DNA of 64,000 nucleotides from assembly GCF_022846255.1 (NCBI RefSeq), contig NZ_AP025682.1; one strand, written 5' to 3'. This stretch comes from Escherichia coli (GTDB lineage: Bacteria > Pseudomonadota > Gammaproteobacteria > Enterobacterales > Enterobacteriaceae). The notes below the pieces were generated by a model, which was not told the origin of the DNA, did no database searches, and saw only the letters and a program-made list of their open reading frames with translations. This document shows, one piece after another, positions 4,407 to 48,619 of this stretch. How positions within the stretch are numbered: position 1 is the stretch's first letter; each line of letters starts with the position of its first letter. A program made the translations under genes and the position numbers.

Positions 4407-4594
4407 AACATTTCCTGCTTTAACATAATTTGCCGTTAACATAACGGGCTTTTCTTAAAATTTCATTAAATATTGTTCACCTGTTTTCAGTACGTTACGT
4501 TTCGCTGCAAGAATGTAGATTGCCCATCCCGCCATCCTGGTCTAAGCCTGGAAAGGATCAATTTTCATCCGAACGTTCCTGACAGGAGAAGACC

Positions 4595-5596
4595 ATGAGT
4601 AAAGTTGGTATTAATGGTTTTGGTCGTATCGGTCGACTGGTGTTGCGTCGATTACTTGAAGTCAAAAGCAACATAGACGTTGTCGCTATTAATGATCTCA
4701 CTTCCCCAAAAATTCTCGCCTACCTGCTGAAACATGATTCAAACTACGGACCGTTCCCCTGGAGCGTTGATTATACGGAAGATTCACTTATCGTTGATGG
4801 GAAAAGTATCGCGGTTTACGCCGAAAAAGAGGCTAAAAATATTCCGTGGAAAGCGAAAGGCGCAGAAATCATTGTCGAATGTACAGGCTTTTATACCTCC
4901 GCCGAGAAATCGCAGGCGCATCTTGATGCTGGCGCGAAGAAGGTGTTGATTTCCGCCCCTGCCGGTGAAATGAAAACCATCGTTTATAACGTCAATGACG
5001 ACACTCTGGATGGCAACGACACCATTGTTTCCGTGGCGTCATGCACCACTAACTGCCTTGCGCCGATGGCCAAAGCCTTGCATGACAGTTTCGGGATAGA
5101 AGTCGGCACGATGACAACCATTCATGCCTATACCGGCACCCAGTCACTGGTGGATGGCCCACGTGGTAAAGATTTACGTGCTTCACGCGCAGCGGCAGAA
5201 AATATCATTCCCCACACTACGGGGGCGGCAAAAGCCATTGGTCTGGTGATCCCGGAACTGAGCGGCAAACTGAAAGGTCATGCGCAACGCGTGCCGGTGA
5301 AAACAGGTTCGGTCACTGAACTGGTGTCGATTCTCGGAAAAAAAGTGACTGCCGAAGAGGTGAACAACGCGCTTAAAAAGGCGACAAACAATAACGAGTC
5401 ATTTGGTTATACTGATGAAGAAATAGTCTCTTCCGATATCATTGGCAGCCATTTCGGTTCGGTGTTTGATGCCACGCAAACGGAAATTACCGCCGTGGGC
5501 GATTTACAACTGGTGAAAACGGTCGCCTGGTACGATAACGAATATGGCTTCGTCACACAGCTTATTCGCACCCTCGAAAAATTCGCTAAACTCTGA
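4595..5596 (+). CDS. gapC: Glyceraldehyde-3-phosphate dehydrogenase C, full-length 333 aa
   Basis: NAD-binding [10 protein letters not shown] motif and catalytic [10 protein letters not shown]; uninterrupted here, whereas gapC is a pseudogene in K-12. Confidence 0.9.
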
Positions 5597-5637: not shown

Positions 5638-7077
5638 TTACGACTGTAAATAAACCACCTGGGTCTGCAGATATTCATGCAAGCCATGTTTACCATCTGC
5701 GCCGCCAATACCGGATTTACGCCATCCAGCGTGGAAGCCTTGCATAGCTTCGAAGTTTTCACGGTTGATGTAAGTTTCACCAAACTTCAGCCCTTTAATG
5801 GCTTTCATCGCGACGTTCAGATTTTGGGTATAGATTGATGAGGTCAGGCCGTAATCACTGTCATTAGCCATTGAGATAGCCTCTTCCAGCGTGTCAAATG
5901 CGACCACCGGCAGAACCGGGCCAAAGGTTTCCTCATGCATAATCGACATTTCCTGGCGAACATCCAGCAGCAATGTCGGCGGATAATAATATCCTTTCCC
6001 CTCTACCGCTTTGCCACCCAACGCCACTCTCGCCCCTTCTTCTACTGCGCGCGCCACTTTTTGCTCAACCCTTTCCAGCGCCGCGGCGTTAATCAACGGT
6101 CCCATCGCAATGTCGTTGCGTTCAGCAGGGTTACCAAATTGAACCGCCTGCATCGCTTCACCCAGCCGATTGACGAACTGATCATAAATGCTTTTCTGTA
6201 CATAAACACGTTCTGCACAGTTACACACTTGCCCACTATTAATGACGCGTGAATCAACGATGGCTTTGACTGCCAGTTCAAGATCGGCATCGTCCATTAC
6301 GATAGCCGGTGCTTTACCCCCCAATTCCAGGCACACTTTGGTGATGTTTTTCGCCGCAGTCGCCATAATCTTTTCACCTGCAGAGACGCTGCCTGTCATA
6401 CTGACCATTGCGACCTTTGGGTTACCCGCCAGTTCTTGCCCAACGGTTTCACCACGCCCGAGTACAAGGTTAAACACGCCGCGCGGAAGGCCTATTTCAT
6501 CAACGATTTTGGCGAATGCAATCGCATTGTTTGGCGTAAATTCACTGGGTTTAATGACGATGGTATTACCGGTCAAAAGAGCGGGAGCCATTTTGCGGGC
6601 AATGAGGAAGAACGGAAAGTTCCACGGCAGAATGCCGGTAGTCACGCCAAGCGCACGTTTAAACAGAAGAATATTTTCTCCTGGACGATCGCTTTGAATA
6701 ATCTCGCCCTCGTAACGCCGTGCCCACTCCGCCATATAATCGATATAGTCCGCAGTAAAAGCCACTTCGACTTCAGCCAACTGCTGGATCTTGCCCCCTT
6801 CTTCGACAATCAGCGCACTGATTTCACTGGCACGTTCCCGGATCCCGGCGGAGATTTTGCGCAACCAACTGGCGCGTTCAATAGCAGGCAACGCTTCCCA
6901 TTCTGGTTGTGCACGTTCTGCTGCATCGATTGCCTTACGGGCATCCTCGGCCTGACCATCGGGAATGCGGGAAATGACAGCCTCTGTAGCAGGGTTTTCC
7001 ACATCAATCCATGCGTCTCCACGCCAGGTAACAAACTGTCCATCGATATACATAGGATGTTGAACGGGTACTGACAT
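5638..7077 (-). CDS. aldA: Lactaldehyde/glycolaldehyde dehydrogenase A, 479 aa
   Basis: 479 aa aldehyde dehydrogenase fold (catalytic Cys in GQVCNCAERVYV, ELGGKAP motif); length and neighbours match AldA. Confidence 0.9.
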   Translation of the reverse strand: MSVPVQHPMYIDGQFVTWRGDAWIDVENPATEAVISRIPDGQAEDARKAIDAAERAQPEWEALPAIERASWLRKISAGIRERASEISALIVEEGGKIQQLAEVEVAFTADYIDYMAEWARRYEGEIIQSDRPGENILLFKRALGVTTGILPWNFPFFLIARKMAPALLTGNTIVIKPSEFTPNNAIAFAKIVDEIGLPRGVFNLVLGRGETVGQELAGNPKVAMVSMTGSVSAGEKIMATAAKNITKVCLELGGKAPAIVMDDADLELAVKAIVDSRVINSGQVCNCAERVYVQKSIYDQFVNRLGEAMQAVQFGNPAERNDIAMGPLINAAALERVEQKVARAVEEGARVALGGKAVEGKGYYYPPTLLLDVRQEMSIMHEETFGPVLPVVAFDTLEEAISMANDSDYGLTSSIYTQNLNVAMKAIKGLKFGETYINRENFEAMQGFHAGWRKSGIGGADGKHGLHEYLQTQVVYLQS

Positions 7078-34803: not shown

Positions 34804-36318
34804 TCAGGATGATTTATTCATAGCAGGAACCAACAAAAATGCGATAAATAACAGACCACTGATTAGCAGAAAGGTATCCGAAAATGCCATAGTTTGCGCC
34901 TCCCTCAGCATCAATTGACTCAATAATTTGGTTGAAGCCAGTATTTCCGATGTCTGGTCACTTCCACTGCGATTAAAAAACAAAGCACTTCTGGAAATGA
35001 AGTCATTCACCGTATGGGGAACAGAAACCATTTTTTCACCCATTCTCGAAAAATGAAAATTAGTTCGATTATTGAGAATAGAGCCACACAGGGCAATACC
35101 AATTGCGCCCCCAAGATTACGTGTTAAATTAAATACACCAGAGGCTAACTTCAGCCGTTCTTTTGGAATTCCCCCCAGCGTTAATGTTACGATGGGGGCC
35201 ATCGCAAACTGCTGCGAAATCCCTCTAATTGCCTGTGGAAACAGTAACTCCTGCCATCCCCATTCGTGGGTTATAGGGGTAAAAAGATACATTGAAAACA
35301 CAAATCCGCCCAGCCCCGCCATCAACAGCCATTGCAGATTTATTTTTTTACTTAACCAGAAGTAAAAGGGAACAGAAAATAACTGGAAAATACCTGTTGT
35401 GCAAACGGCAAAACCTATCTCTTCGGCATTTAATCCGCGAACCTGCCCCAAAAACACAGGTATTAAATATACAGTAGAGAATATTCCAACCCCTCCAGAA
35501 AAAGAAAAGAAACATCCCAGTGTGAAATATTTATCCTTAAAAGCATGAAGATCCATTATCGGATTGGATATTTTAAGTGTACGCGCAGCAAATAAAATAA
35601 AACTTACCAATGCCAGAACTGATGTCAGCAAAATAGTATTATCATCCAGCCATCCCCAGCGCGCTCCTTCTTCAAGGGTATATTCCAGACATCCCAGTGT
35701 CATGGCCAACAGGATAATACTCGGATAATCAGCAACTTTCAGTAAAGAGAGATCAGGTTTATCAAAATTAACCAGAAAAGGAATACTCAAAACTAAATAT
35801 ATGCCCGGTAATATATTGATATAAAATAGCCATCGCCAGTCGAGGTTATCAGTGATCCAGCCCCCCAGAGTTGGCCCTAGCGTCGGTGACAGTGAGGCCA
35901 GCGCACTGACTACCGCAGCAGCCAACCCCAACTCTTTACCCTGGTAATAAATAAACGCCGTCGTGAAAACTAAAGGGATCATGGATGCGCCAGCAACTCC
36001 CTGTAAAGCACGAAAAAAAATCATGATCTGAATATTCCATGCAAGTCCACAAGCGATACTCATTAAAGTAAATATTCCCGCGGATAGAGTAAAAAGCCAA
36101 CGAGTGGAAAATACCCGTGACAGCCACCCAGAGAGCGGAATAACAATAATCTCGGCAATTAAATAGCTGGTCTGAAGCCAGGCCATTTCGTCTTTACCTG
36201 CGGACAGACCACCACCTATTTCATTTAGGGATGACGATACAATTTGAATATCAAGCTGAGCAATAAATAATCCAATACACATACTGGCGAAAGCAATATG
36301 TTTACGCATAGACATCAT
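34804..36318 (-). CDS. MFS multidrug efflux transporter, EmrB/QacA (DHA2) family, 504 aa
   Basis: ~14 predicted TM segments with DHA2 motifs; overlaps the upstream membrane-fusion gene by 4 bp. Confidence 0.8.
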   Translation of the reverse strand: MMSMRKHIAFASMCIGLFIAQLDIQIVSSSLNEIGGGLSAGKDEMAWLQTSYLIAEIIVIPLSGWLSRVFSTRWLFTLSAGIFTLMSIACGLAWNIQIMIFFRALQGVAGASMIPLVFTTAFIYYQGKELGLAAAVVSALASLSPTLGPTLGGWITDNLDWRWLFYINILPGIYLVLSIPFLVNFDKPDLSLLKVADYPSIILLAMTLGCLEYTLEEGARWGWLDDNTILLTSVLALVSFILFAARTLKISNPIMDLHAFKDKYFTLGCFFSFSGGVGIFSTVYLIPVFLGQVRGLNAEEIGFAVCTTGIFQLFSVPFYFWLSKKINLQWLLMAGLGGFVFSMYLFTPITHEWGWQELLFPQAIRGISQQFAMAPIVTLTLGGIPKERLKLASGVFNLTRNLGGAIGIALCGSILNNRTNFHFSRMGEKMVSVPHTVNDFISRSALFFNRSGSDQTSEILASTKLLSQLMLREAQTMAFSDTFLLISGLLFIAFLLVPAMNKSS

Positions 36319-37346
36319 CTCTCATCAACACTGACGGTGACGGACAGTCCCGGGCGAAGAAGTTGCTTTAATTCCTTTGCGTCGTCAAATGCAATCCGTA
36401 CCGGGACACGCTGAACAATTTTGGTGAAATTGCCAGTGGCATTTTCTATCGGAATCAAGCTGAAACTGGCTCCTGTCGCTGGGGAAAGGCTTTCAATGTG
36501 ACCGTGAAACACTTCCCCTTTGAGAATATCAGCACGGATCTCAGCCTTCATTCCTGGCTTCATTCCCGCTATTTGGTTTTCTTTATAATTTGCATCAACC
36601 CACAACTCACTGACTGGTACTAGTGAAACTAACGATGTGCCGCCTTCCACCCAACTGCCTGTATGGGCGCTGCGGTTTGCGACAATGCCATCAATCGGCG
36701 CACGAACAAGGGTATATTCCAGATCCAGTAGTGCCTGAGTCAAAGCGGCCTGAACTTCTTCGATACTTGCACGTACGTTTTCTTCCTGAGCAGATAAAAC
36801 TGCCAGCCGTTGCTTCTCCACCAGGAAATCGTTCGCGGCTTTGCGCTCCTTTGCTGCGACCTGCTGGTAGTCAAACCTGGCGTTATCAATAATTTGTTGC
36901 GATATTGCCGCTGATTGTGCGAGTTTTTCATAACGTTCAGTATCTCGCAGGCGCTTTTGCTCCTCATGTTTTACTGCCTGCCATGTTTCACTGGCACTTT
37001 GAATTATCGACTGCTGCATCGCAATAGTGGCTTGAATGCTTTCGAGATTGGCTTTGCTACTTTTTATTTTTGCCTCAAGCCTGCCGACATTTGCACGATA
37101 ATCCCGATCATCGAGACGCAGGATAATATCGCCTTTTTTTACACTCTGATTATCGCGCACCTCTATAGCAGAAATATAACCAGAAACTTTACTTGCCACC
37201 GTGGTGATATTACCACCAATGTAAGCATCATCCGTCGTCTGTATAAATCTTCCTTTGCTTACCCACCAGATAAAAAAGACAACGCCAGCCAAAAGAATAC
37301 CGATCGCTACCACCCCAATAAGCTGTTTTTTAGAAATTATCATCAT
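36315..37346 (-). CDS. Membrane fusion protein, HlyD/EmrA family, 343 aa
   Basis: N-terminal TM anchor, coiled-coil region and HlyD-type beta-barrel; translationally coupled to the MFS gene. Confidence 0.8.
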   Translation of the reverse strand: MMIISKKQLIGVVAIGILLAGVVFFIWWVSKGRFIQTTDDAYIGGNITTVASKVSGYISAIEVRDNQSVKKGDIILRLDDRDYRANVGRLEAKIKSSKANLESIQATIAMQQSIIQSASETWQAVKHEEQKRLRDTERYEKLAQSAAISQQIIDNARFDYQQVAAKERKAANDFLVEKQRLAVLSAQEENVRASIEEVQAALTQALLDLEYTLVRAPIDGIVANRSAHTGSWVEGGTSLVSLVPVSELWVDANYKENQIAGMKPGMKAEIRADILKGEVFHGHIESLSPATGASFSLIPIENATGNFTKIVQRVPVRIAFDDAKELKQLLRPGLSVTVSVDER

Positions 37347-40249: not shown

Positions 40250-40400
40250 TTCTTCCGCATAACTCACTATCCTTCTGTCATATCATTAAATTTTTCTGAT
40301 TTATTGATCTGACAGAAGGTTCATCACTGTTTCATTCACCAGATATGGGTTAATCTTTTAATTACAAACTGCGTTGACAGTTGTTGTAAGGAGACCCTGT

Positions 40401-41351
40401 ATGGCTATGTATCAGAACATGCTCGTTGTTATCGATCCTAACCAGGACGACCAACCAGCATTGCGGCGAGCTGTTTATTTACATCAACGGATTGGTGGCA
40501 AAATTAAAGCCTTTTTGCCGATCTATGACTTCTCATACGAAATGACCACCCTGCTCTCTCCGGACGAACGTACCGCTATGCGTCAGGGCGTCATCAGCCA
40601 GCGTACAGCCTGGATCCACGAGCAGGCAAAATATTATCTCAATGCTGGCGTTCCCATTGAAATTAAAGTGGTCTGGCATAACCGTCCTTTCGAAGCCATC
40701 ATTCAGGAAGTGATCAGCGGCGGGCACGATTTGGTGCTAAAAATGGCGCACCAACATGACCGTCTGGAAGCGGTGATTTTTACGCCAACGGACTGGCATC
40801 TGTTACGCAAATGCCCAAGCCCGGTGTGGATGGTGAAAGACCAGCCGTGGCCGGAAGGGGGTAAGGCGCTGGTGGCGGTGAATCTCGCCAGTGAAGAGCC
40901 GTACCATAATGCGCTCAATGAAAAACTGGTCAAAGAGACGATCGAACTGGCAGAACAAGTCAACCATACCGAAGTTCATCTGGTTGGCGCTTATCCGGTA
41001 ACGCCAATTAATATCGCGATTGAACTGCCGGAATTTGACCCGAGCGTTTATAACGATGCCATTCGTGGGCAACATTTGCTGGCAATGAAAGCTCTGCGGC
41101 AGAAATTCGGCATTAATGAAAACATGACGCACGTAGAAAAAGGTCTGCCAGAAGAGGTGATTCCTGATTTGGCGGAGCATTTACAGGCGGGGATTGTGGT
41201 TCTGGGCACGGTCGGACGCACCGGTATTTCAGCAGCATTCCTCGGCAACACGGCGGAACAGGTGATTGATCATCTTCGCTGCGACCTGCTGGTCATTAAA
41301 CCTGACCAGTATCAGACACCCGTTGAACTGGATGACGAAGAAGACGATTAA
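40401..41351 (+). CDS. uspE: Universal stress protein E (tandem Usp domains), 316 aa
   Basis: Start at [10 protein letters not shown] after aaggag RBS; two UspA domains; 316 aa. Confidence 0.9.
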
Positions 41352-42983: not shown

Positions 42984-44597
42984 TTAATGCTTCACAATAT
43001 ACATAGTCCGACTGTACGCCACATCTTCAGGGTTATTAATGGGATAACCTTTCAGCCACGGCTTGATTAATCGTCCATTGGTATATTGATAAATTGGTGC
43101 AATCGGTGCTTGCTCCATGAGGATTTTTTCTGCCGCGTTGTAATCGGCATTACGCGCTTTAACGGTATTTTCCGTCGATGCCTGGGCCAGAACTTTGTCA
43201 TATGCCGGATTGTTAAAGCGTGAAATATTCCCGGAATGCGTTGACGTTAATAATGTCAGGAAAGTGGAGGGTTCATTATAATCCCCTACCCACGAGGCGC
43301 GGATAACATCAAAATTGCCGGTATTACGGCTATCGATATAGGTTTTCCATTCCTGGTTTTGCAATTTAACATCTACGCCCAGGTTCTTTTTCCACATCGA
43401 TGCTACAGCAATCGCAATTTTTTGATGGTTTTCTGAAGTGTTATACAAAAGCGTCAGCTTCAGCGGTTTTTGCGGACCATAACCAGCTGCGCTCAACAAA
43501 GTTTTTGCCTGCGCATTCAGTTCTTCCTGACTCATTTGTTCAAACGGCGAAGGTTCCGGCGTAAATCCCGCGGTAACATCTGGTGTAAAATGCCACGCTG
43601 GCTTTTCGCCCGTCCCCAACACTTTTTCGGTCATCAGGCGGCGATCTATCGTCATACTTAATGCCAGGCGAACGCGCTGATCTGCCGTCGGCCCTTTTTG
43701 CGTGTTAAACGCATAATAATAGGTCCCGAGCTGTGGCGGCGTATAAACCTGCCCCGGAATATCCTTCAACAACTTCTGATACATATTTTTCGGGAAGGAT
43801 TCGGTGATATCAATATCCCCCGCGAGATAACGCTTAGTGGCTGCGGATTCCTGATTAATTGGCAGGAAGGTCACTTTTTGCAGTACCGTTTTGGCGTTAT
43901 CCCAATAATGGGTATTCGGCACTACGACCAGTTTTTCATTGACTACGCGCTCTTTAAGAACATAAGCGCCATTGCCGATCAGATTTCCGGGTTTCGTCCA
44001 CTCTTTACTGCTTTCTACGTTGGCTTTTTGCACCGGGAAGAAGGCAAAGTTAGCGGTTAAATTCACAAACCACGGCAATGGTTTATCAAGCTGGATTTTC
44101 AAAGTATGGGCATCAACTGCGGTGACGCCAAGCTGGTCAGGCGCGGCTTTACCATCAATAATCGCCTGTGCGTTGTTGATTCCCGCCAGCGCGGCAAACC
44201 ATGCAAATGGCGATAGCGTTTTCGGGTCCACCAGACGTTGCCAGCTGTAGACAAAATCTTGCGCCGTTACCGGTGTGCCATCCGCCCATTTTGCGTTATC
44301 GCGCAGGGTAAAAGTCCAGATACGGTTGTCATTACTTTTCCACTGAGTCGCAACGCCGGGGACAATCTCCCCTTTCTCGTTCTGATTCACCAGTCCTTCA
44401 AACAGATCGCGAATGACCTGAATCTCCGGCAGGCCCACGGCTTTAGCGGGATCCAGCGACGCTGGCTCATCTTTAATGTGGCGCACCAGCTCCTGCTTCT
44501 CTGCCAGTACTGTGCCGCTCGGAACTTCAGCAGCATACGAAAGAGAAATGCTGCTGACCAACAGCGCACAACACGTGACTGAAACAGAGTGCTTCAT
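42984..44597 (-). CDS. mppA: Periplasmic murein tripeptide-binding protein (OppA paralogue), 537 aa
   Basis: Start at MKHSVSVTCCALLVSSISLSYA (signal peptide); family 5 solute-binding protein; 537 aa. Confidence 0.9.
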   Translation of the reverse strand: MKHSVSVTCCALLVSSISLSYAAEVPSGTVLAEKQELVRHIKDEPASLDPAKAVGLPEIQVIRDLFEGLVNQNEKGEIVPGVATQWKSNDNRIWTFTLRDNAKWADGTPVTAQDFVYSWQRLVDPKTLSPFAWFAALAGINNAQAIIDGKAAPDQLGVTAVDAHTLKIQLDKPLPWFVNLTANFAFFPVQKANVESSKEWTKPGNLIGNGAYVLKERVVNEKLVVVPNTHYWDNAKTVLQKVTFLPINQESAATKRYLAGDIDITESFPKNMYQKLLKDIPGQVYTPPQLGTYYYAFNTQKGPTADQRVRLALSMTIDRRLMTEKVLGTGEKPAWHFTPDVTAGFTPEPSPFEQMSQEELNAQAKTLLSAAGYGPQKPLKLTLLYNTSENHQKIAIAVASMWKKNLGVDVKLQNQEWKTYIDSRNTGNFDVIRASWVGDYNEPSTFLTLLTSTHSGNISRFNNPAYDKVLAQASTENTVKARNADYNAAEKILMEQAPIAPIYQYTNGRLIKPWLKGYPINNPEDVAYSRTMYIVKH

Positions 44598-44659
44598 AAG
44601 TTTCCCTCTAACCGACATTAAAATTGATGCGTAATTATTTGTTTCGCTTTAAAGAAATG

Positions 44660-44686
44660 CAAACAACTTCCATCAAAAAAGTGACA
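44660..44686 (+). repeat. Copy A of a ~27 bp imperfect direct repeat (caaacaacttccNNcaaaaaagtgaNa)
   Basis: caaacaacttccatcaaaaaagtgaca; 63-89 bp upstream of the mppA start codon; matches copy B at 47771..47797 in 24 of 27 positions. Confidence 0.6.
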
Positions 44687-44933
44687 AAGGAAGCATCAAA
44701 TGTTTTAAGTATCAATATATCAAATCAGATTTAGTGTAAATAATAGTCTCCAAAATGCGGTAAAGCACATAGAACTCCGAACACTACGTTCGGGCTTCGC
44801 ACATTCAAACCCGTTTTCGGTATCATAATCAGCATCTGTCGCCATTGTGCGAAGAATAAAAAATAACCAAAACGTTGAAAGGAACTGAGAATACGTTAAG
44901 AGAAGAATTAAATTAATGTATCAGCAAGTAGTG

Positions 44934-45833
44934 CTAAACAGCACCTTTATACTTCAGCCTATCTATAAATAATGAGAATGCCGAGCCAGCATGTCGACGG
45001 TGTGGATAGTACAGGTGATAACCGGGTAAATCTGGTGTGAATTTATCCAAAACACGTATCAGTTTTTTTTCTTTAATAGCCCGCTCAACCTGATCATAAG
45101 GTAGATACGCCAATCCATGCCCATCAATTGCAGCATCAATGATCAGGTCTATCGTATTCAGTAAAAGCTGACCTTCCATGCGAACACGAACTTCACGTCC
45201 ACCGCGTATTAATCTCCAGCGATTTGCTGTACCCGATGTGGGAAGATACAAATTAATTGCCTGATGATCTATTAATTGTGACACTGACGTTGGAGCACTT
45301 CGACGAGAAAAATAATCCGGTGAGCCAACAATAGCCATTGGTATGTCTGGCCCGATTCGAATGGCGATCATATCTTTATCCATCTCCCCACCCAGACGGA
45401 CGCCTGCATCAAAACGTTCAGAAACGACATCGGTCAAACCATAATCAATGGTAAGCTGAATATCAATTTCAGGATGCGATTTCAGGAATGTGCGCATAGC
45501 TGGTAACAATATCGTTTTTGCTGCATGTTCTACAGTAGTAATACGTATTGTCCCGGATGGGCGGTTCTGCAGATCGCTCAGGGAAGTCAGGGCAGAATCT
45601 ATGTCATGCAACATAGGGCCAAGAACAGACAAAAGATGCTCGCCCGCTTCAGTGGGTACAACGCTGCGCGTGGTTCGCGTCAGAAGCCGCAATCCCAATC
45701 GTTCTTCTATACGGCGCACTATCTGGCTTAAAGCTGACTGCGCCATGCTCAGGCGGGCTGCTGCGCGAGTGAAGCTACGCTCCTCTGCAACAACGACAAA
45801 CGCCATCAGATCAGCGATTTCTTCACGCTTCAT
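44934..45833 (-). CDS. ycjZ: LysR-family transcriptional regulator, 299 aa
   Basis: N-terminal HTH (FTRAAARLSMAQSALSQIVRRIE) and LysR substrate-binding domain; 299 aa. Confidence 0.85.
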   Translation of the reverse strand: MKREEIADLMAFVVVAEERSFTRAAARLSMAQSALSQIVRRIEERLGLRLLTRTTRSVVPTEAGEHLLSVLGPMLHDIDSALTSLSDLQNRPSGTIRITTVEHAAKTILLPAMRTFLKSHPEIDIQLTIDYGLTDVVSERFDAGVRLGGEMDKDMIAIRIGPDIPMAIVGSPDYFSRRSAPTSVSQLIDHQAINLYLPTSGTANRWRLIRGGREVRVRMEGQLLLNTIDLIIDAAIDGHGLAYLPYDQVERAIKEKKLIRVLDKFTPDLPGYHLYYPHRRHAGSAFSLFIDRLKYKGAV

Positions 45834-45853
45834 TCAGTATCTCCATACAATCT

Positions 45854-45899
45854 ATTAATCATTTAAATGATAGGTCTAATCATGATTTTGGGTCTAATC
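45854..45899. promoter_or_regulatory. Cluster of palindromic TAATCA-containing boxes in the ycjZ-ycjY divergent promoter region (candidate LysR-type binding sites)
   Basis: Perfect palindromes ATCATTTAAATGAT (45857..45870) and AATCATGATT (45877..45886), with a third taatca copy at 45893; read directly. Confidence 0.45.
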
Positions 45900-45970
45900 A
45901 ACTTAATGATCAATATCTATAGTGATATCACCAACCGTTAAAACGAACCGACAACTCCATGAGGAACGGA

Positions 45971-46891
45971 ATGATGAATAATAAAGTCAGCTTCACTAAC
46001 AGCAATAATCCAACCATCTCTTTGTCTGCAGTGATCTATTTCCCTCCAAAATTTGATGAAACCCGTCAGTATCCGGCAATTGTGGTATCTCACCCAGGTG
46101 GGGGCGTTAAAGAGCAAACGGCCGGAACCTATGCCGAAAAACTGGCGGAAAAGGGATTTGTCACTATTGCTTATGACGCATCTTATCAAGGTGAAAGCGG
46201 CGGCGAGCCGCGTCAGTTAGAAAACCCATACATTCGTACTGAAGACGTCAGTGCCGTGATTGATTACCTGACAACGCTTTCTTATGTCGACAATACCCGA
46301 ATTGGTGCGATGGGAATTTGTGCCGGTGCAGGATATACAGCCAATGCTGCAATTCAGGATCGCCGCATCAAGGCCATCGGTACTGTTAGTGCGGTCAATA
46401 TTGGTTCGATGTTCCGTAATGGTTGGGAAAACAATGTGAAATCTATTGATGCCCTACCATACGTTGACGCGGGTTCAAACGCCCGAACCAGCGATATTAG
46501 CAGCGGAGAATACGCCACTATGCCACTGGCACCAATGAAGGAGTCCGATGCGCCGAACGAAGAACTGCGTCAGGCCTGGGAATATTACCACACCCCTCGC
46601 GCGCAGTATCCAACAGCACCGGGTTACGCTACTTTGCGCAGCCTTAACCAGATTATTACCTATGATGCTTACCATATGGCGGAAGTGTACCTGACTCAGC
46701 CGATACAGATTGTGGCGGGCAGCCAGGCTGGGAGCAAATGGATGAGTGACGACCTGTACGATCGAGCATCAAGCCAGGATAAACGCTATCACATTGTTGA
46801 AGGCGCAAACCATATGGATCTTTATGATGGCAAAGTCTATATGGCTGAAGCAATTTCAGTATTAGCTCCGTTCTTTGAGGAAACTCTGTAA
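45971..46891 (+). CDS. ycjY: Alpha/beta-hydrolase (dienelactone-hydrolase-like), 306 aa
   Basis: Start at MMNNKVSF after a gagg RBS; hydrolase fold with nucleophile elbow (GICAGAG); 306 aa. Confidence 0.85.
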   Translation: MMNNKVSFTNSNNPTISLSAVIYFPPKFDETRQYPAIVVSHPGGGVKEQTAGTYAEKLAEKGFVTIAYDASYQGESGGEPRQLENPYIRTEDVSAVIDYLTTLSYVDNTRIGAMGICAGAGYTANAAIQDRRIKAIGTVSAVNIGSMFRNGWENNVKSIDALPYVDAGSNARTSDISSGEYATMPLAPMKESDAPNEELRQAWEYYHTPRAQYPTAPGYATLRSLNQIITYDAYHMAEVYLTQPIQIVAGSQAGSKWMSDDLYDRASSQDKRYHIVEGANHMDLYDGKVYMAEAISVLAPFFEETL

Positions 46892-46961
46892 TGAAACATA
46901 TTCAAATCCGTAATAGTGATATGGCCTGGCATATTGCTGCCAATAATCTGGGAAAAGTTTC

Positions 46962-47600
46962 ATGAAAAATGTACTGATTCTTGGTGCTGGCGGTCAGATA
47001 GCCCGCCATGTGATTAATCAACTGGCAGATAAACAAACCATTAAACAAACTTTATTTGCCCGTCAGCCAGCAAAAATCCACAAACCCTATCCAACTAATA
47101 GCAAGATTATTATGGGGGATGTACTGAATCATGCAGCATTGAAGCAGGCCATGCAGGGACAGGATGTTGTGTATGCCAACCTTACGGGGGAAGATTTAGA
47201 TATTCAGGCAAATTCAGTGATCGCTGCGATGAAAGCCTGTGATGTTAAACGTCTGATCTTTGTTCTTTCCCTCGGTATTTATGATGAAGTTCCAGGAAAA
47301 TTTGGCGAATGGAATAATGCAGTTATTGGTGAACCCCTAAAACCATTCCGCAGGGCTGCGGATGCAATTGAGGCTTCTGGACTGGAATATACAATTCTTC
47401 GCCCTGCCTGGCTGACTGATGAAGATATTATTGATTATGAGCTTACCTCACGCAATGAACCATTCAAAGGTACGATCGTATCACGTAAGAGTGTCGCAGC
47501 ATTAATCACAGATATCATCGATAAACCTGAGAAACACATTGGTGAGAATATAGGCATCAATCAACCCGGGACTGATGGTGATAAGCCCTTCTTCATGTAA
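46962..47600 (+). CDS. ymjC: NAD(P)-binding Rossmann-fold protein (NmrA/SDR-like), full-length 212 aa
   Basis: N-terminal GAGGQIARH dinucleotide-binding motif; uninterrupted here, whereas ymjC is recalled as a pseudogene in K-12. Confidence 0.7.
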   Translation: MKNVLILGAGGQIARHVINQLADKQTIKQTLFARQPAKIHKPYPTNSKIIMGDVLNHAALKQAMQGQDVVYANLTGEDLDIQANSVIAAMKACDVKRLIFVLSLGIYDEVPGKFGEWNNAVIGEPLKPFRRAADAIEASGLEYTILRPAWLTDEDIIDYELTSRNEPFKGTIVSRKSVAALITDIIDKPEKHIGENIGINQPGTDGDKPFFM

Positions 47601-47770
47601 ATCAATTATATAGCTACCATCGTACTGTACTATGTGCAGTACGATTTATTAAACTTATTAAGGTGAACTGATCAATCAGATGCGATTAACATGTGTAGAA
47701 CCAGTAAGAATAAAATACGCCATGTATATAACATTACGACAATTCTAATATCTGCACATCAATGAAAATA

Positions 47771-47797
47771 CAAACAACTTCCGGCAAAAAAGTGATA
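47771..47797 (+). repeat. Copy B of the ~27 bp imperfect direct repeat
   Basis: caaacaacttccggcaaaaaagtgata; 94-120 bp upstream of the mpaA start codon. Confidence 0.6.
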
Positions 47798-47890
47798 CAA
47801 GATCGATGACATAGCGTTGAAGAAAAGGATTTGATAATCCGCAAAATTTGCACAACACTGCCTGTAATACTTCCTGAACCAGAGACGATC

Positions 47891-48619
47891 ATGACCGTAA
47901 CTCGCCCACGCGCCGAACGCGGCGCATTTCCGCCCGGAACAGAACATTACGGACGTTCATTATTGGGCGCGCCGTTAATCTGGTTTCCGGCCCCTGCAGC
48001 CAGTCACGAAAGTGGTTTGATTCTGGCTGGCACTCACGGTGATGAAAACTCTTCGATCGTCACGCTCTCCTGTGCTCTGCGGACTTTGACACCTTCTTTG
48101 CGCCGCCATCATGTGGTGCTGTGTGTGAATCCTGACGGCTGCCAGTTAGGGTTACGGGCCAATGCTAATGGTGTGGATTTAAACCGAAACTTTCCGGCAG
48201 CGAACTGGAAGGAAGGTGAAACAGTTTATCGCTGGAACAGCGCCGCTGAAGAACGTGATGTTGTATTACTGACAGGTGACAAACCTGGCTCCGAACCTGA
48301 AACCCAGGCGCTGTGCCAGCTTATACACCGCATTCAACCTGCCTGGGTGGTCTCATTCCACGATCCGCTGGCCTGTATTGAAGATCCCAGACACAGCGAA
48401 TTAGGTGAATGGCTGGCCCAGGCGTTTGAATTGCCTCTGGTAACCAGCGTCGGTTATGAAACGCCTGGCTCTTTCGGCAGTTGGTGTGCAGATCTCAACT
48501 TGCATTGCATCACCGCAGAGTTTCCACCCATCTCCTCCGACGAAGCCAGCGAAAAATATCTCTTTGCGATGGCAAACTTGCTGCGCTGGCATCCTAAAGA
48601 TGCAATTCGCCCGTCGTGA
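47891..48619 (+). CDS. mpaA: Murein peptide amidase A (zinc carboxypeptidase family), 242 aa
   Basis: Start at MTVTRPRAERG; zinc-binding HGDE motif; 242 aa. Confidence 0.85.
   Translation: MTVTRPRAERGAFPPGTEHYGRSLLGAPLIWFPAPAASHESGLILAGTHGDENSSIVTLSCALRTLTPSLRRHHVVLCVNPDGCQLGLRANANGVDLNRNFPAANWKEGETVYRWNSAAEERDVVLLTGDKPGSEPETQALCQLIHRIQPAWVVSFHDPLACIEDPRHSELGEWLAQAFELPLVTSVGYETPGSFGSWCADLNLHCITAEFPPISSDEASEKYLFAMANLLRWHPKDAIRPS

Follow-up and report, generated by a model that had tools for sequence, protein, structure and literature searches.

The murein peptide genes mppA and mpaA were studied in a 64,000-nucleotide stretch of Escherichia coli DNA (NCBI RefSeq assembly GCF_022846255.1, contig NZ_AP025682.1; referred to below as the window), which runs reverse to the K-12 orientation. 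The subject of the analysis is a pair of short direct repeats, one upstream of each gene, that enclose the genes pgrR (ycjZ), ycjY, and ymjC. An earlier reading of the same DNA (hereafter, the original prediction) described the pair as an imperfect 27-bp repeat and offered two explanations for it, either an orientation-independent operator common to both genes or a pair of direct repeats that remained after the ycjZ-ycjY-ymjC module had been inserted into an ancestral divergent promoter of mppA and mpaA. The features of the locus, with gene names taken from the RefSeq annotation of near-identical genomes, are as follows.

42984..44597, minus strand: mppA, gene for the murein tripeptide binding protein (ATG at 44597)
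44634..44663, minus strand: putative sigma-70 promoter of mppA (-35 TTGCAT at 44662-44657, in repeat copy 1; 17-bp spacer; -10 AATAAT at 44639-44634)
44655..44684, plus strand: repeat copy 1, the mppA-proximal 30-bp core AAATGCAAACAACTTCCATCAAAAAAGTGA (the 27-mer of the original prediction is 44660-44686)
44685..47765, strand not applicable: inserted foreign block between the cores (non-coding left end, pgrR, ycjY, ymjC-like SDR gene, non-coding right end)
44934..45833, minus strand: pgrR (ycjZ), LysR-type regulator gene, within the insert
45959..46891, plus strand: ycjY, alpha/beta hydrolase gene, within the insert
46962..47600, plus strand: full-length ymjC-like SDR oxidoreductase gene, within the insert
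47766..47795, plus strand: repeat copy 2, the mpaA-proximal 30-bp core AAATACAAACAACTTCCGGCAAAAAAGTGA (the 27-mer of the original prediction is 47771-47797)
47831..47860, plus strand: mpaA-proximal conserved blocks, candidate promoter or operator (TTGATA at 47831-47836, 17 bp, and AACACT at 47854-47859 in the near-invariant TTTGCACAACACTG)
47891..48619, plus strand: mpaA, gene for the murein tripeptide amidase (ATG at 47891)

The two 27-mers, CAAACAACTTCCATCAAAAAAGTGACA (44660-44686) and CAAACAACTTCCGGCAAAAAAGTGATA (47771-47797), lie on one strand and are identical at 24 of 27 positions. Copy 1 is located 63-89 bp upstream of the mppA start codon (44597, minus strand) and copy 2 is located 94-120 bp upstream of the mpaA start codon (47891). 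The original prediction was accurate on all of these points, as well as in placing ycjZ-ycjY-ymjC between the repeats, which the gene coordinates confirm. The ungapped match between the copies reaches 37 nt with 31 identities (44655-44691 versus 47766-47802), the similarity past the core, up to 44691 on the copy 1 side, being weak. Anchored extension of the 27-mers added only five bases, AAATG, on the left and nothing significant to the right of the core, where there is only a weak, strain-dependent xACAxGA. The cores (44655-44684 and 47766-47795) immediately flank one contiguous segment, pgrR-ycjY-ymjC, in the same orientation and with a repeat period of 3111 bp in the window.

The only point in favor of a chance match in AT-rich intergenic DNA is its moderate length. 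In 100 dinucleotide-preserving shuffles of the window, two matches never occurred, an all-against-all count found only two 27-mer pairs at the level of 24/27 in the whole 64 kb, and the exact correspondence of the repeat to the single copy at the empty site (see below) is not expected by chance. On these grounds, chance is refuted as an explanation, its remaining probability being negligible, and the view of the original prediction that the match exceeds chance expectation in 64 kb is upheld. The other 24/27 pair in the window consists of 36853-36879 (GCTGCGACCTGCTGGTAGTCAAACCTG) and 41278-41304 (GCTGCGACCTGCTGGTCATTAAACCTG), which are both found within open reading frames (36315-37346 on the minus strand and 40374-41351 on the plus strand, respectively).

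The distribution of the repeat was examined in 5,426 complete E. coli genomes, in 5,418 of which the locus was found, and in one genome per species with the MpaA protein as the query, which yielded 80 loci representing about 75 other species of Enterobacteriaceae. In the E. coli set, a 43-nt probe matched a median of two places per genome, and just one place in the strains with an empty site. Occurrence of the motif at many unrelated loci, which the original prediction had named as evidence against its reading, was therefore not seen. A dispersed intergenic repeat family of the REP/ERIC type, considered as another source of the two copies in the window, was rejected because of the same counts.

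Of the 5,418 E. coli genomes, 173 have adjacent and divergent mppA and mpaA genes that are 182 bp apart, with a single copy of the core between them. This is also the arrangement in nearly all of the 80 Enterobacteriaceae loci, where the two genes are adjacent, divergent, and about 180-200 bp apart, and each of 43 aligned mppA/mpaA intergenic regions contains a single core. The empty loci include those of E. albertii, E. whittamii, and three further Escherichia clades, as well as Citrobacter, Enterobacter, Leclercia, Lelliottia, Kluyvera, Kosakonia, Pluralibacter, and Raoultella, and in the species survey the pgrR-ycjY block was found in no genome outside E. coli other than that of Escherichia sp. 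E1V33. The mppA side of the occupied locus is collinear with the empty site up to ...AAAAAAGTGA (which ends with GTGA) and the mpaA side from AAATGCAAAC... onward (which begins with AAATG), and alignment to both junctions defines the duplicated segment as the ~30 bp AAATGCAAACAACTTCCGGCAAAAAAGTGA. The junctions are identical in all occupied genomes examined.

Because the outgroups carry an empty site, the single-copy arrangement is ancestral and the block is an insertion, not the remainder of a deletion elsewhere; it resulted from a single event. We consider it highly probable that the 27-mers represent a target sequence of ~30 bp, AAATGCAAACAACTTCCGGCAAAAAAGTGA, that was duplicated in the course of one insertion into the ancestral divergent control region of mppA and mpaA. 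The second alternative of the original prediction is thus strongly supported by the single-copy genomes, and its suggestion that genomes without the module might carry a single copy was borne out by the finding of exactly one copy between adjacent mppA and mpaA in the 173 E. coli genomes and in about 75 species.

Two other insertions were noticed in or near this intergenic region. In Salmonella enterica subsp. arizonae and diarizonae (L024, 3449-5677, and L025), a different insert of ~3.1-3.4 kb separates mppA and mpaA and carries a gene of the cytolethal-distending-toxin subunit B family (NF011787, 379 bits) between two open reading frames whose predicted N-termini resemble those of lipoproteins. 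The conserved blocks next to mpaA have been retained there, those next to mppA have been replaced, and the insert is not flanked by a duplication. In the empty-site E. coli strain MFDS1019527 (NZ_CP169309; L002, 3621-5066), a 66-bp 5' stub of mppA adjoins a tyrosine integrase gene and phage genes for NinB and a replicative helicase, from which it appears that a prophage has integrated within the mppA coding sequence.

The two copies have not remained equivalent. In the ancestral core, positions 18-19 are GG and the bases next to its right end are TA; both features are kept by copy 2, whereas copy 1 has AT in place of the GG in every occupied E. coli genome, as judged from the lack of any full-length match to the GG version, and is followed by CA. 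The A at 47770, immediately to the left of the copy 2 27-mer, is a polymorphism, with G present in most E. coli genomes (aaaatG). At least eight genomes carry the AT variant of copy 1 in both copies, which indicates that sequence has been exchanged between the repeats, and excision of the block across them is possible. In E1V33, where copy 1 carries GG, the locus (L005, 3436-5910) is a mosaic, in which identity to E. coli amounts to 95-99% in the block and to 85-92% in mppA and mpaA on either side. This identity rises at copy 1, with the left crossover inside this copy, and falls ~25-45 bp to the right of copy 2, so that the block must have been transferred as a unit from one Escherichia lineage to another, through recombination within the conserved promoter DNA.

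Several observations point to a regulatory role of the DNA that was duplicated. On the mppA strand, 42 of the 43 species have kept TTGCA(T/A)-N17-AATAAT, with spacers that vary in sequence, 36-62 nt upstream of the ATG, and the consensus scan returned a single sigma-70-like match in both the occupied and the empty site, TTTGCA-18-AATAAT, which is equivalent to TTGCAT-17-AATAAT. The spacing of the hexamers agrees with the 16-18 bp expected of a sigma-70 promoter upstream of mppA. We infer that TTGCAT-N17-AATAAT is the mppA promoter and that its -35 element sits inside the duplicated core; the searchable literature yielded no mapped transcription starts for either mppA or mpaA. On the same strand, the core also holds a T-tract at about -48 to -53, upstream of the -35 element, and a conserved TCA(A/C) box (TGA on the plus strand). 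Identity to the E. coli base across 37 non-Escherichia species is 76% in the core, compared with 54% in the remaining intergenic region, and the invariant columns of the single ancestral copy in the 43-species alignment form TGA and ATGCAA patches. Judged by this conservation, the ancestral single copy is predicted to be conserved regulatory DNA.

The mpaA-proximal blocks TTGATA-17 bp-AACACT in TTTGCACAACACTG lie to the right of copy 2 and were untouched by the insertion. They score below the threshold of the consensus scan, so the placement of an mpaA promoter here is suggested by their conservation in the 43-species alignment. The blocks at 47847-47860 (TTTGCACAACACTG) and 47830-47838 are almost invariant in 43 Enterobacteriaceae species, beyond what a -10 element alone would need, and may represent a putative operator for a regulator of mpaA. 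Because the segment was duplicated rather than split, both genes kept their complete native upstream DNA (~90 bp for mppA and ~125 bp for mpaA), and this is probably why the insertion was tolerated.

The foreign nature of the inserted block is supported by a G+C content lower than that of its surroundings (0.447, versus 0.484 for mppA and 0.543 for mpaA-ycjG) and by the occurrence of homologs of its genes at other loci in distant Proteobacteria (see below). Inspection of its open reading frames and RefSeq annotation revealed no gene or remnant of an integrase, transposase, or excisionase, and no terminal inverted repeats were found at its ends. Between copy 1 and pgrR, there is a partial epoxyqueuosine reductase (QueH) pseudogene on the minus strand (window ~44762-44836), which is annotated by RefSeq in O157/PBS4-type genomes (L084, 717-791; L087, 699-773), and a terminator-like hairpin lies in the same region (44793-44777). 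The QueH remnant is probably a trace of the chromosomal context of the donor, and its presence suggests that the block is a piece of a donor chromosome rather than a discrete mobile element.

YcjY homologs with 82-89% amino-acid identity are encoded in Pluralibacter, Rhizobium, Agrobacterium, Sphingobium, and Burkholderia, and the unit conserved elsewhere, in unrelated contexts, is a LysR gene divergent from two tandem alpha/beta-hydrolase genes. YcjY thus belongs to a laterally spread cassette of a LysR gene and two hydrolase genes, and no direct repeats were found around the homologous cassette in other genera. The best NCBIfam match of YcjY, to a UilS-type lactonase, is a weak one (87 bits versus a cutoff of 400). 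The best DNA match to the block, a metagenome contig (L090) with 79% identity, spans exactly pgrR and the two hydrolase genes and omits the ends of the insert, and it was not accepted as identifying the donor. Matches on plasmids were likewise dismissed as evidence for a plasmid location of the locus, as they proved to be mislabeled chromosomes or large records of chromosomal type (the two smallest being 253-386 kb), all typed as non-mobilizable.

The block exists in E. coli in three forms. The long form, found in O157:H7 and PBS4 (L087, 1908-3760), has a second alpha/beta hydrolase gene and a repeat period of 3990 bp. The form seen in the window has one hydrolase gene, ~880-920 bp having been lost relative to the O157/PBS4-type form with two. 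In the K-12 form, ymjC is truncated by a further ~665-bp deletion (window ~47100-47764), which is shared by E1V33. On the right, this deletion ends no more than 1 nt from the left edge of copy 2, and its junction has only 1 nt of microhomology (L086, ~4590-4606; L005, ~5870-5882).

The reverse polarity, with an ancestral module and its deletion between the repeats as the source of the single-copy genomes, would call for another origin of the repeats and draws its support from certain empty E. coli strains (the sequence type 648 [ST648]-like L001 and MRY15, L096), whose flanks are 98.5-99% identical to those of occupied E. coli and which could represent secondary precise deletions. Against it, every outgroup examined, including the Escherichia clades and about 70 species of other genera, has a single copy and adjacent genes, and three of the empty E. 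coli loci (L002, L097, and L098) carry a divergent, outgroup-like left-flank haplotype that was never seen together with the module. At least two left-flank haplotypes occur among empty-site E. coli, the outgroup-like one and the E. coli-typical one of L001 and L096, and the former sites are most simply regarded as never having been occupied. At the level of the genus and the family, the deletion scenario is refuted; it survives only for particular E. coli lineages and is, as a general account, extremely improbable. An A/G single-nucleotide polymorphism 10 bp to the right of copy 2 was tried as a marker to tell an ancestral empty site from a deletion and turned out not to be diagnostic, since A occurs in occupied genomes too. 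An integrative element that used the core as attB and left the repeats as attL and attR, with its recombinase acting in trans or since lost, would account for the right end of the ymjC deletion falling exactly at the repeat boundary and for the transfer of the block as a unit into E1V33, where identity steps at or within a few tens of base pairs of the repeats. Direct repeats of 15-60 bp flanking an island are, moreover, typical of integrase-mediated insertion. Such an origin is nevertheless hard to reconcile with the gene content of the block, which offers pgrR, hydrolase, and SDR genes and a QueH fragment in place of an integrase, excisionase, or transposase, or with the position of the core, which lies in no tRNA, tmRNA, or small-RNA gene and has no Rfam match. 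Further, the core is not used by any other insertion among the 80 loci (the cdt island of Salmonella is bounded differently and shows no duplication), the cassette lacks flanking direct repeats in other genera, and the donor-type tract in E1V33 runs ~25-45 bp past copy 2, as ordinary homologous recombination predicts. We therefore regard a site-specific integrative element as a very improbable source of the repeats. An RNA gene or structure serving as an att site was discarded on the basis of the Rfam search and of folding, in which the core gave no fold better than those of shuffled sequences. An insertion sequence or transposon with a target-site duplication was rejected in view of the ~30-bp duplication and of the absence of a transposase open reading frame and of inverted repeats at the block ends.

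The functional alternative holds that both copies are binding sites of one transcription factor that coordinates mppA and mpaA and that selection has kept them since the insertion. It is compatible with an insertion origin, to which it adds only a function. In its favor, conservation of the ancestral copy across genera goes beyond the -35 element and takes in the CTT, A-run, and invariant TGA columns, the two copies hardly vary within E. coli, and the two genes act in one pathway. E. coli diversity, however, is too low for this invariance to signal constraint, the mppA-distal part of copy 1 has undergone substitutions (GG to AT and T to C), and a G-to-A change is common in the ATGCAA box of copy 2. 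No known motif fits the core either. PgrR was ruled out as its ligand, since the PgrR target defined by systematic evolution of ligands by exponential enrichment (SELEX) is the pgrR/ycjY spacer, which is not similar to the core and has just a 6-mer in common with it. The same holds for CRP, as neither copy contains a CRP-like site with three or fewer mismatches and the published ycjZ/mppA site lies elsewhere: chromatin immunoprecipitation sequencing of CRP in the enterotoxigenic E. coli strain H10407 tabulates the site CGTGAACCGGGTCACA (peak 1541732) as ycjZ/mppA (PMC4287617), and this sequence maps to the abgA/abgR spacer of H10407 (L099, 1218-1233), not near mppA. A joint operator is on this evidence unlikely. 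As stated in the original prediction, that is, as one orientation-independent operator common to both genes, it was not supported, the copies being paralogous halves of one ancestral region that contain no known regulator motif.

The insertion with target duplication can be pictured as follows. A foreign fragment of ~4 kb, carrying pgrR, ycjY, the second hydrolase gene, and ymjC, would have been inserted once, at the center of the ~182-bp region, in the lineage leading to E. coli. The segment duplicated in the process would be regulatory DNA of the old intergenic region, including the mppA -35 element, the T-tract, and the TCA(A/C) box, so that copy 1 would be part of the working, putative mppA promoter and copy 2 a leftover situated ~35-65 bp upstream of the presumed mpaA -35 element. 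Rather than forming a joint regulatory pair, the copies would now serve as short homology for exchange and may let the block be lost precisely. The duplication most likely came about through illegitimate joining at a replication fork, with the ends of a linear fragment attached to sister duplexes at positions 30 bp apart; leaving the target and returning to it by template switching would be an equivalent route. Recombination by a single crossover with a diverged intergenic copy, that is, in a homeologous region, was considered and rejected. Anchored extension went no further than AAATG on the left, and on the right the signal was not consistent (a score of 5 that was equaled in 10 of 300 shuffles and was seen in one strain only), and the absence of significant extension beyond AAATG, together with the weak and strain-dependent nature of xACAxGA, rules out a longer homeologous repeat. 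Nor did the core show an unusual DNA structure, as tested by folding against shuffles.

Some points weigh against this interpretation. The ST648-like empty sites with typical flanks could be either a retained ancestral allele or the product of a precise deletion. The endpoint of the ymjC deletion at the edge of copy 2 is not predicted by a purely passive scar. The target duplications of known bacterial transposable elements are much shorter than 30 bp, and the joining mechanism is a reconstruction. Finally, the putative mppA promoter was assigned from consensus and conservation. It is conceivable, if quite improbable, that the core is a preferred recombination target, with joins exactly 30 bp apart, of an unrecognized integration process that lacks a recombinase of its own. 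Such a process would be comparable in geometry to CRISPR-repeat duplication, and it might have both inserted the block and set the endpoint of the later K-12-type ymjC deletion, a proposal to which we assign an equally slight probability.

The insertion of target-duplicated DNA at this site means that a regulator of peptidoglycan recycling, PgrR, and its neighboring hydrolase genes are a late lateral insert in a well-studied E. coli locus, one that split an ancient divergent mppA/mpaA promoter left intact in essentially all other Enterobacteriaceae and did so with an unusually long, 30-bp duplication. The literature searched contained no paper that describes these repeats or the polarity of the insertion. 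PgrR (YcjZ) is a described regulator, with the ycjY/ycjZ spacer as its SELEX site and a reported regulon that includes ycjY-ymjDC-mpaA and ycjG (Shimada et al. 2013, as summarized in PMC5934670). The remark of the original prediction that no regulator site had been described for these genes was therefore incomplete, as PgrR is reported there to control ycjY-ymjDC-mpaA. Because the pgrR block is a recent insertion next to mpaA, the control of mpaA by PgrR, by read-through from ycjY, is an Escherichia-specific rewiring (in E. coli, plus E1V33 by transfer) and not an ancestral trait. The native role of the cassette may be unrelated to murein, given that homologs with 82-89% identity are found in other contexts in Rhizobiales, Sphingomonads, and Burkholderia. 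The model of the mppA promoter lends itself to testing, and natural empty-site strains, such as those of ST648, allow mppA and mpaA expression to be compared with and without the insert.

The locus can be compared with several known systems. It involves the same genes, pgrR, ycjY-ymjDC-mpaA, and ycjG, as the PgrR regulon of peptidoglycan-peptide recycling, whereas the PgrR site described there is in the pgrR/ycjY spacer and not in the repeat (PMC5934670). In its architecture, it resembles islets bounded by direct repeats, such as attL/attR cores and Campbell-type single-crossover duplications, in having a contiguous foreign block, repeats in the same orientation, and an empty site with one copy, as well as in the exchange of sequence between the repeats and the possible loss of the block. 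It differs from them in lacking an integrase, a transposase, and terminal inverted repeats and in having a promoter region rather than a tRNA gene as the target, and also in that the incoming DNA shows no homology beyond the 30 bp. As with insertion sequences and transposons, a short stretch of the target is duplicated on both sides of the insert; known bacterial transposon target duplications are about 2-14 bp in length, whereas the one described here is ~30 bp and its insert has no features of a transposable element. CRISPR spacer acquisition duplicates a repeat of 28-37 bp, and casposons give duplications of 14-15 bp. The likeness to these systems, which is drawn from general background, is confined to the length class (~30 bp), from which it would follow that the two strands were joined at positions ~30 bp from each other. 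The locus has no CRISPR array, leader, cas1 gene, or casposon structure and its insert consists of 3-4 kb of ordinary chromosomal genes. The repeat pair adds one more case to a known class, that of islets with a target duplication at their borders, and represents an ordinary insertion footprint rather than a new regulatory site.

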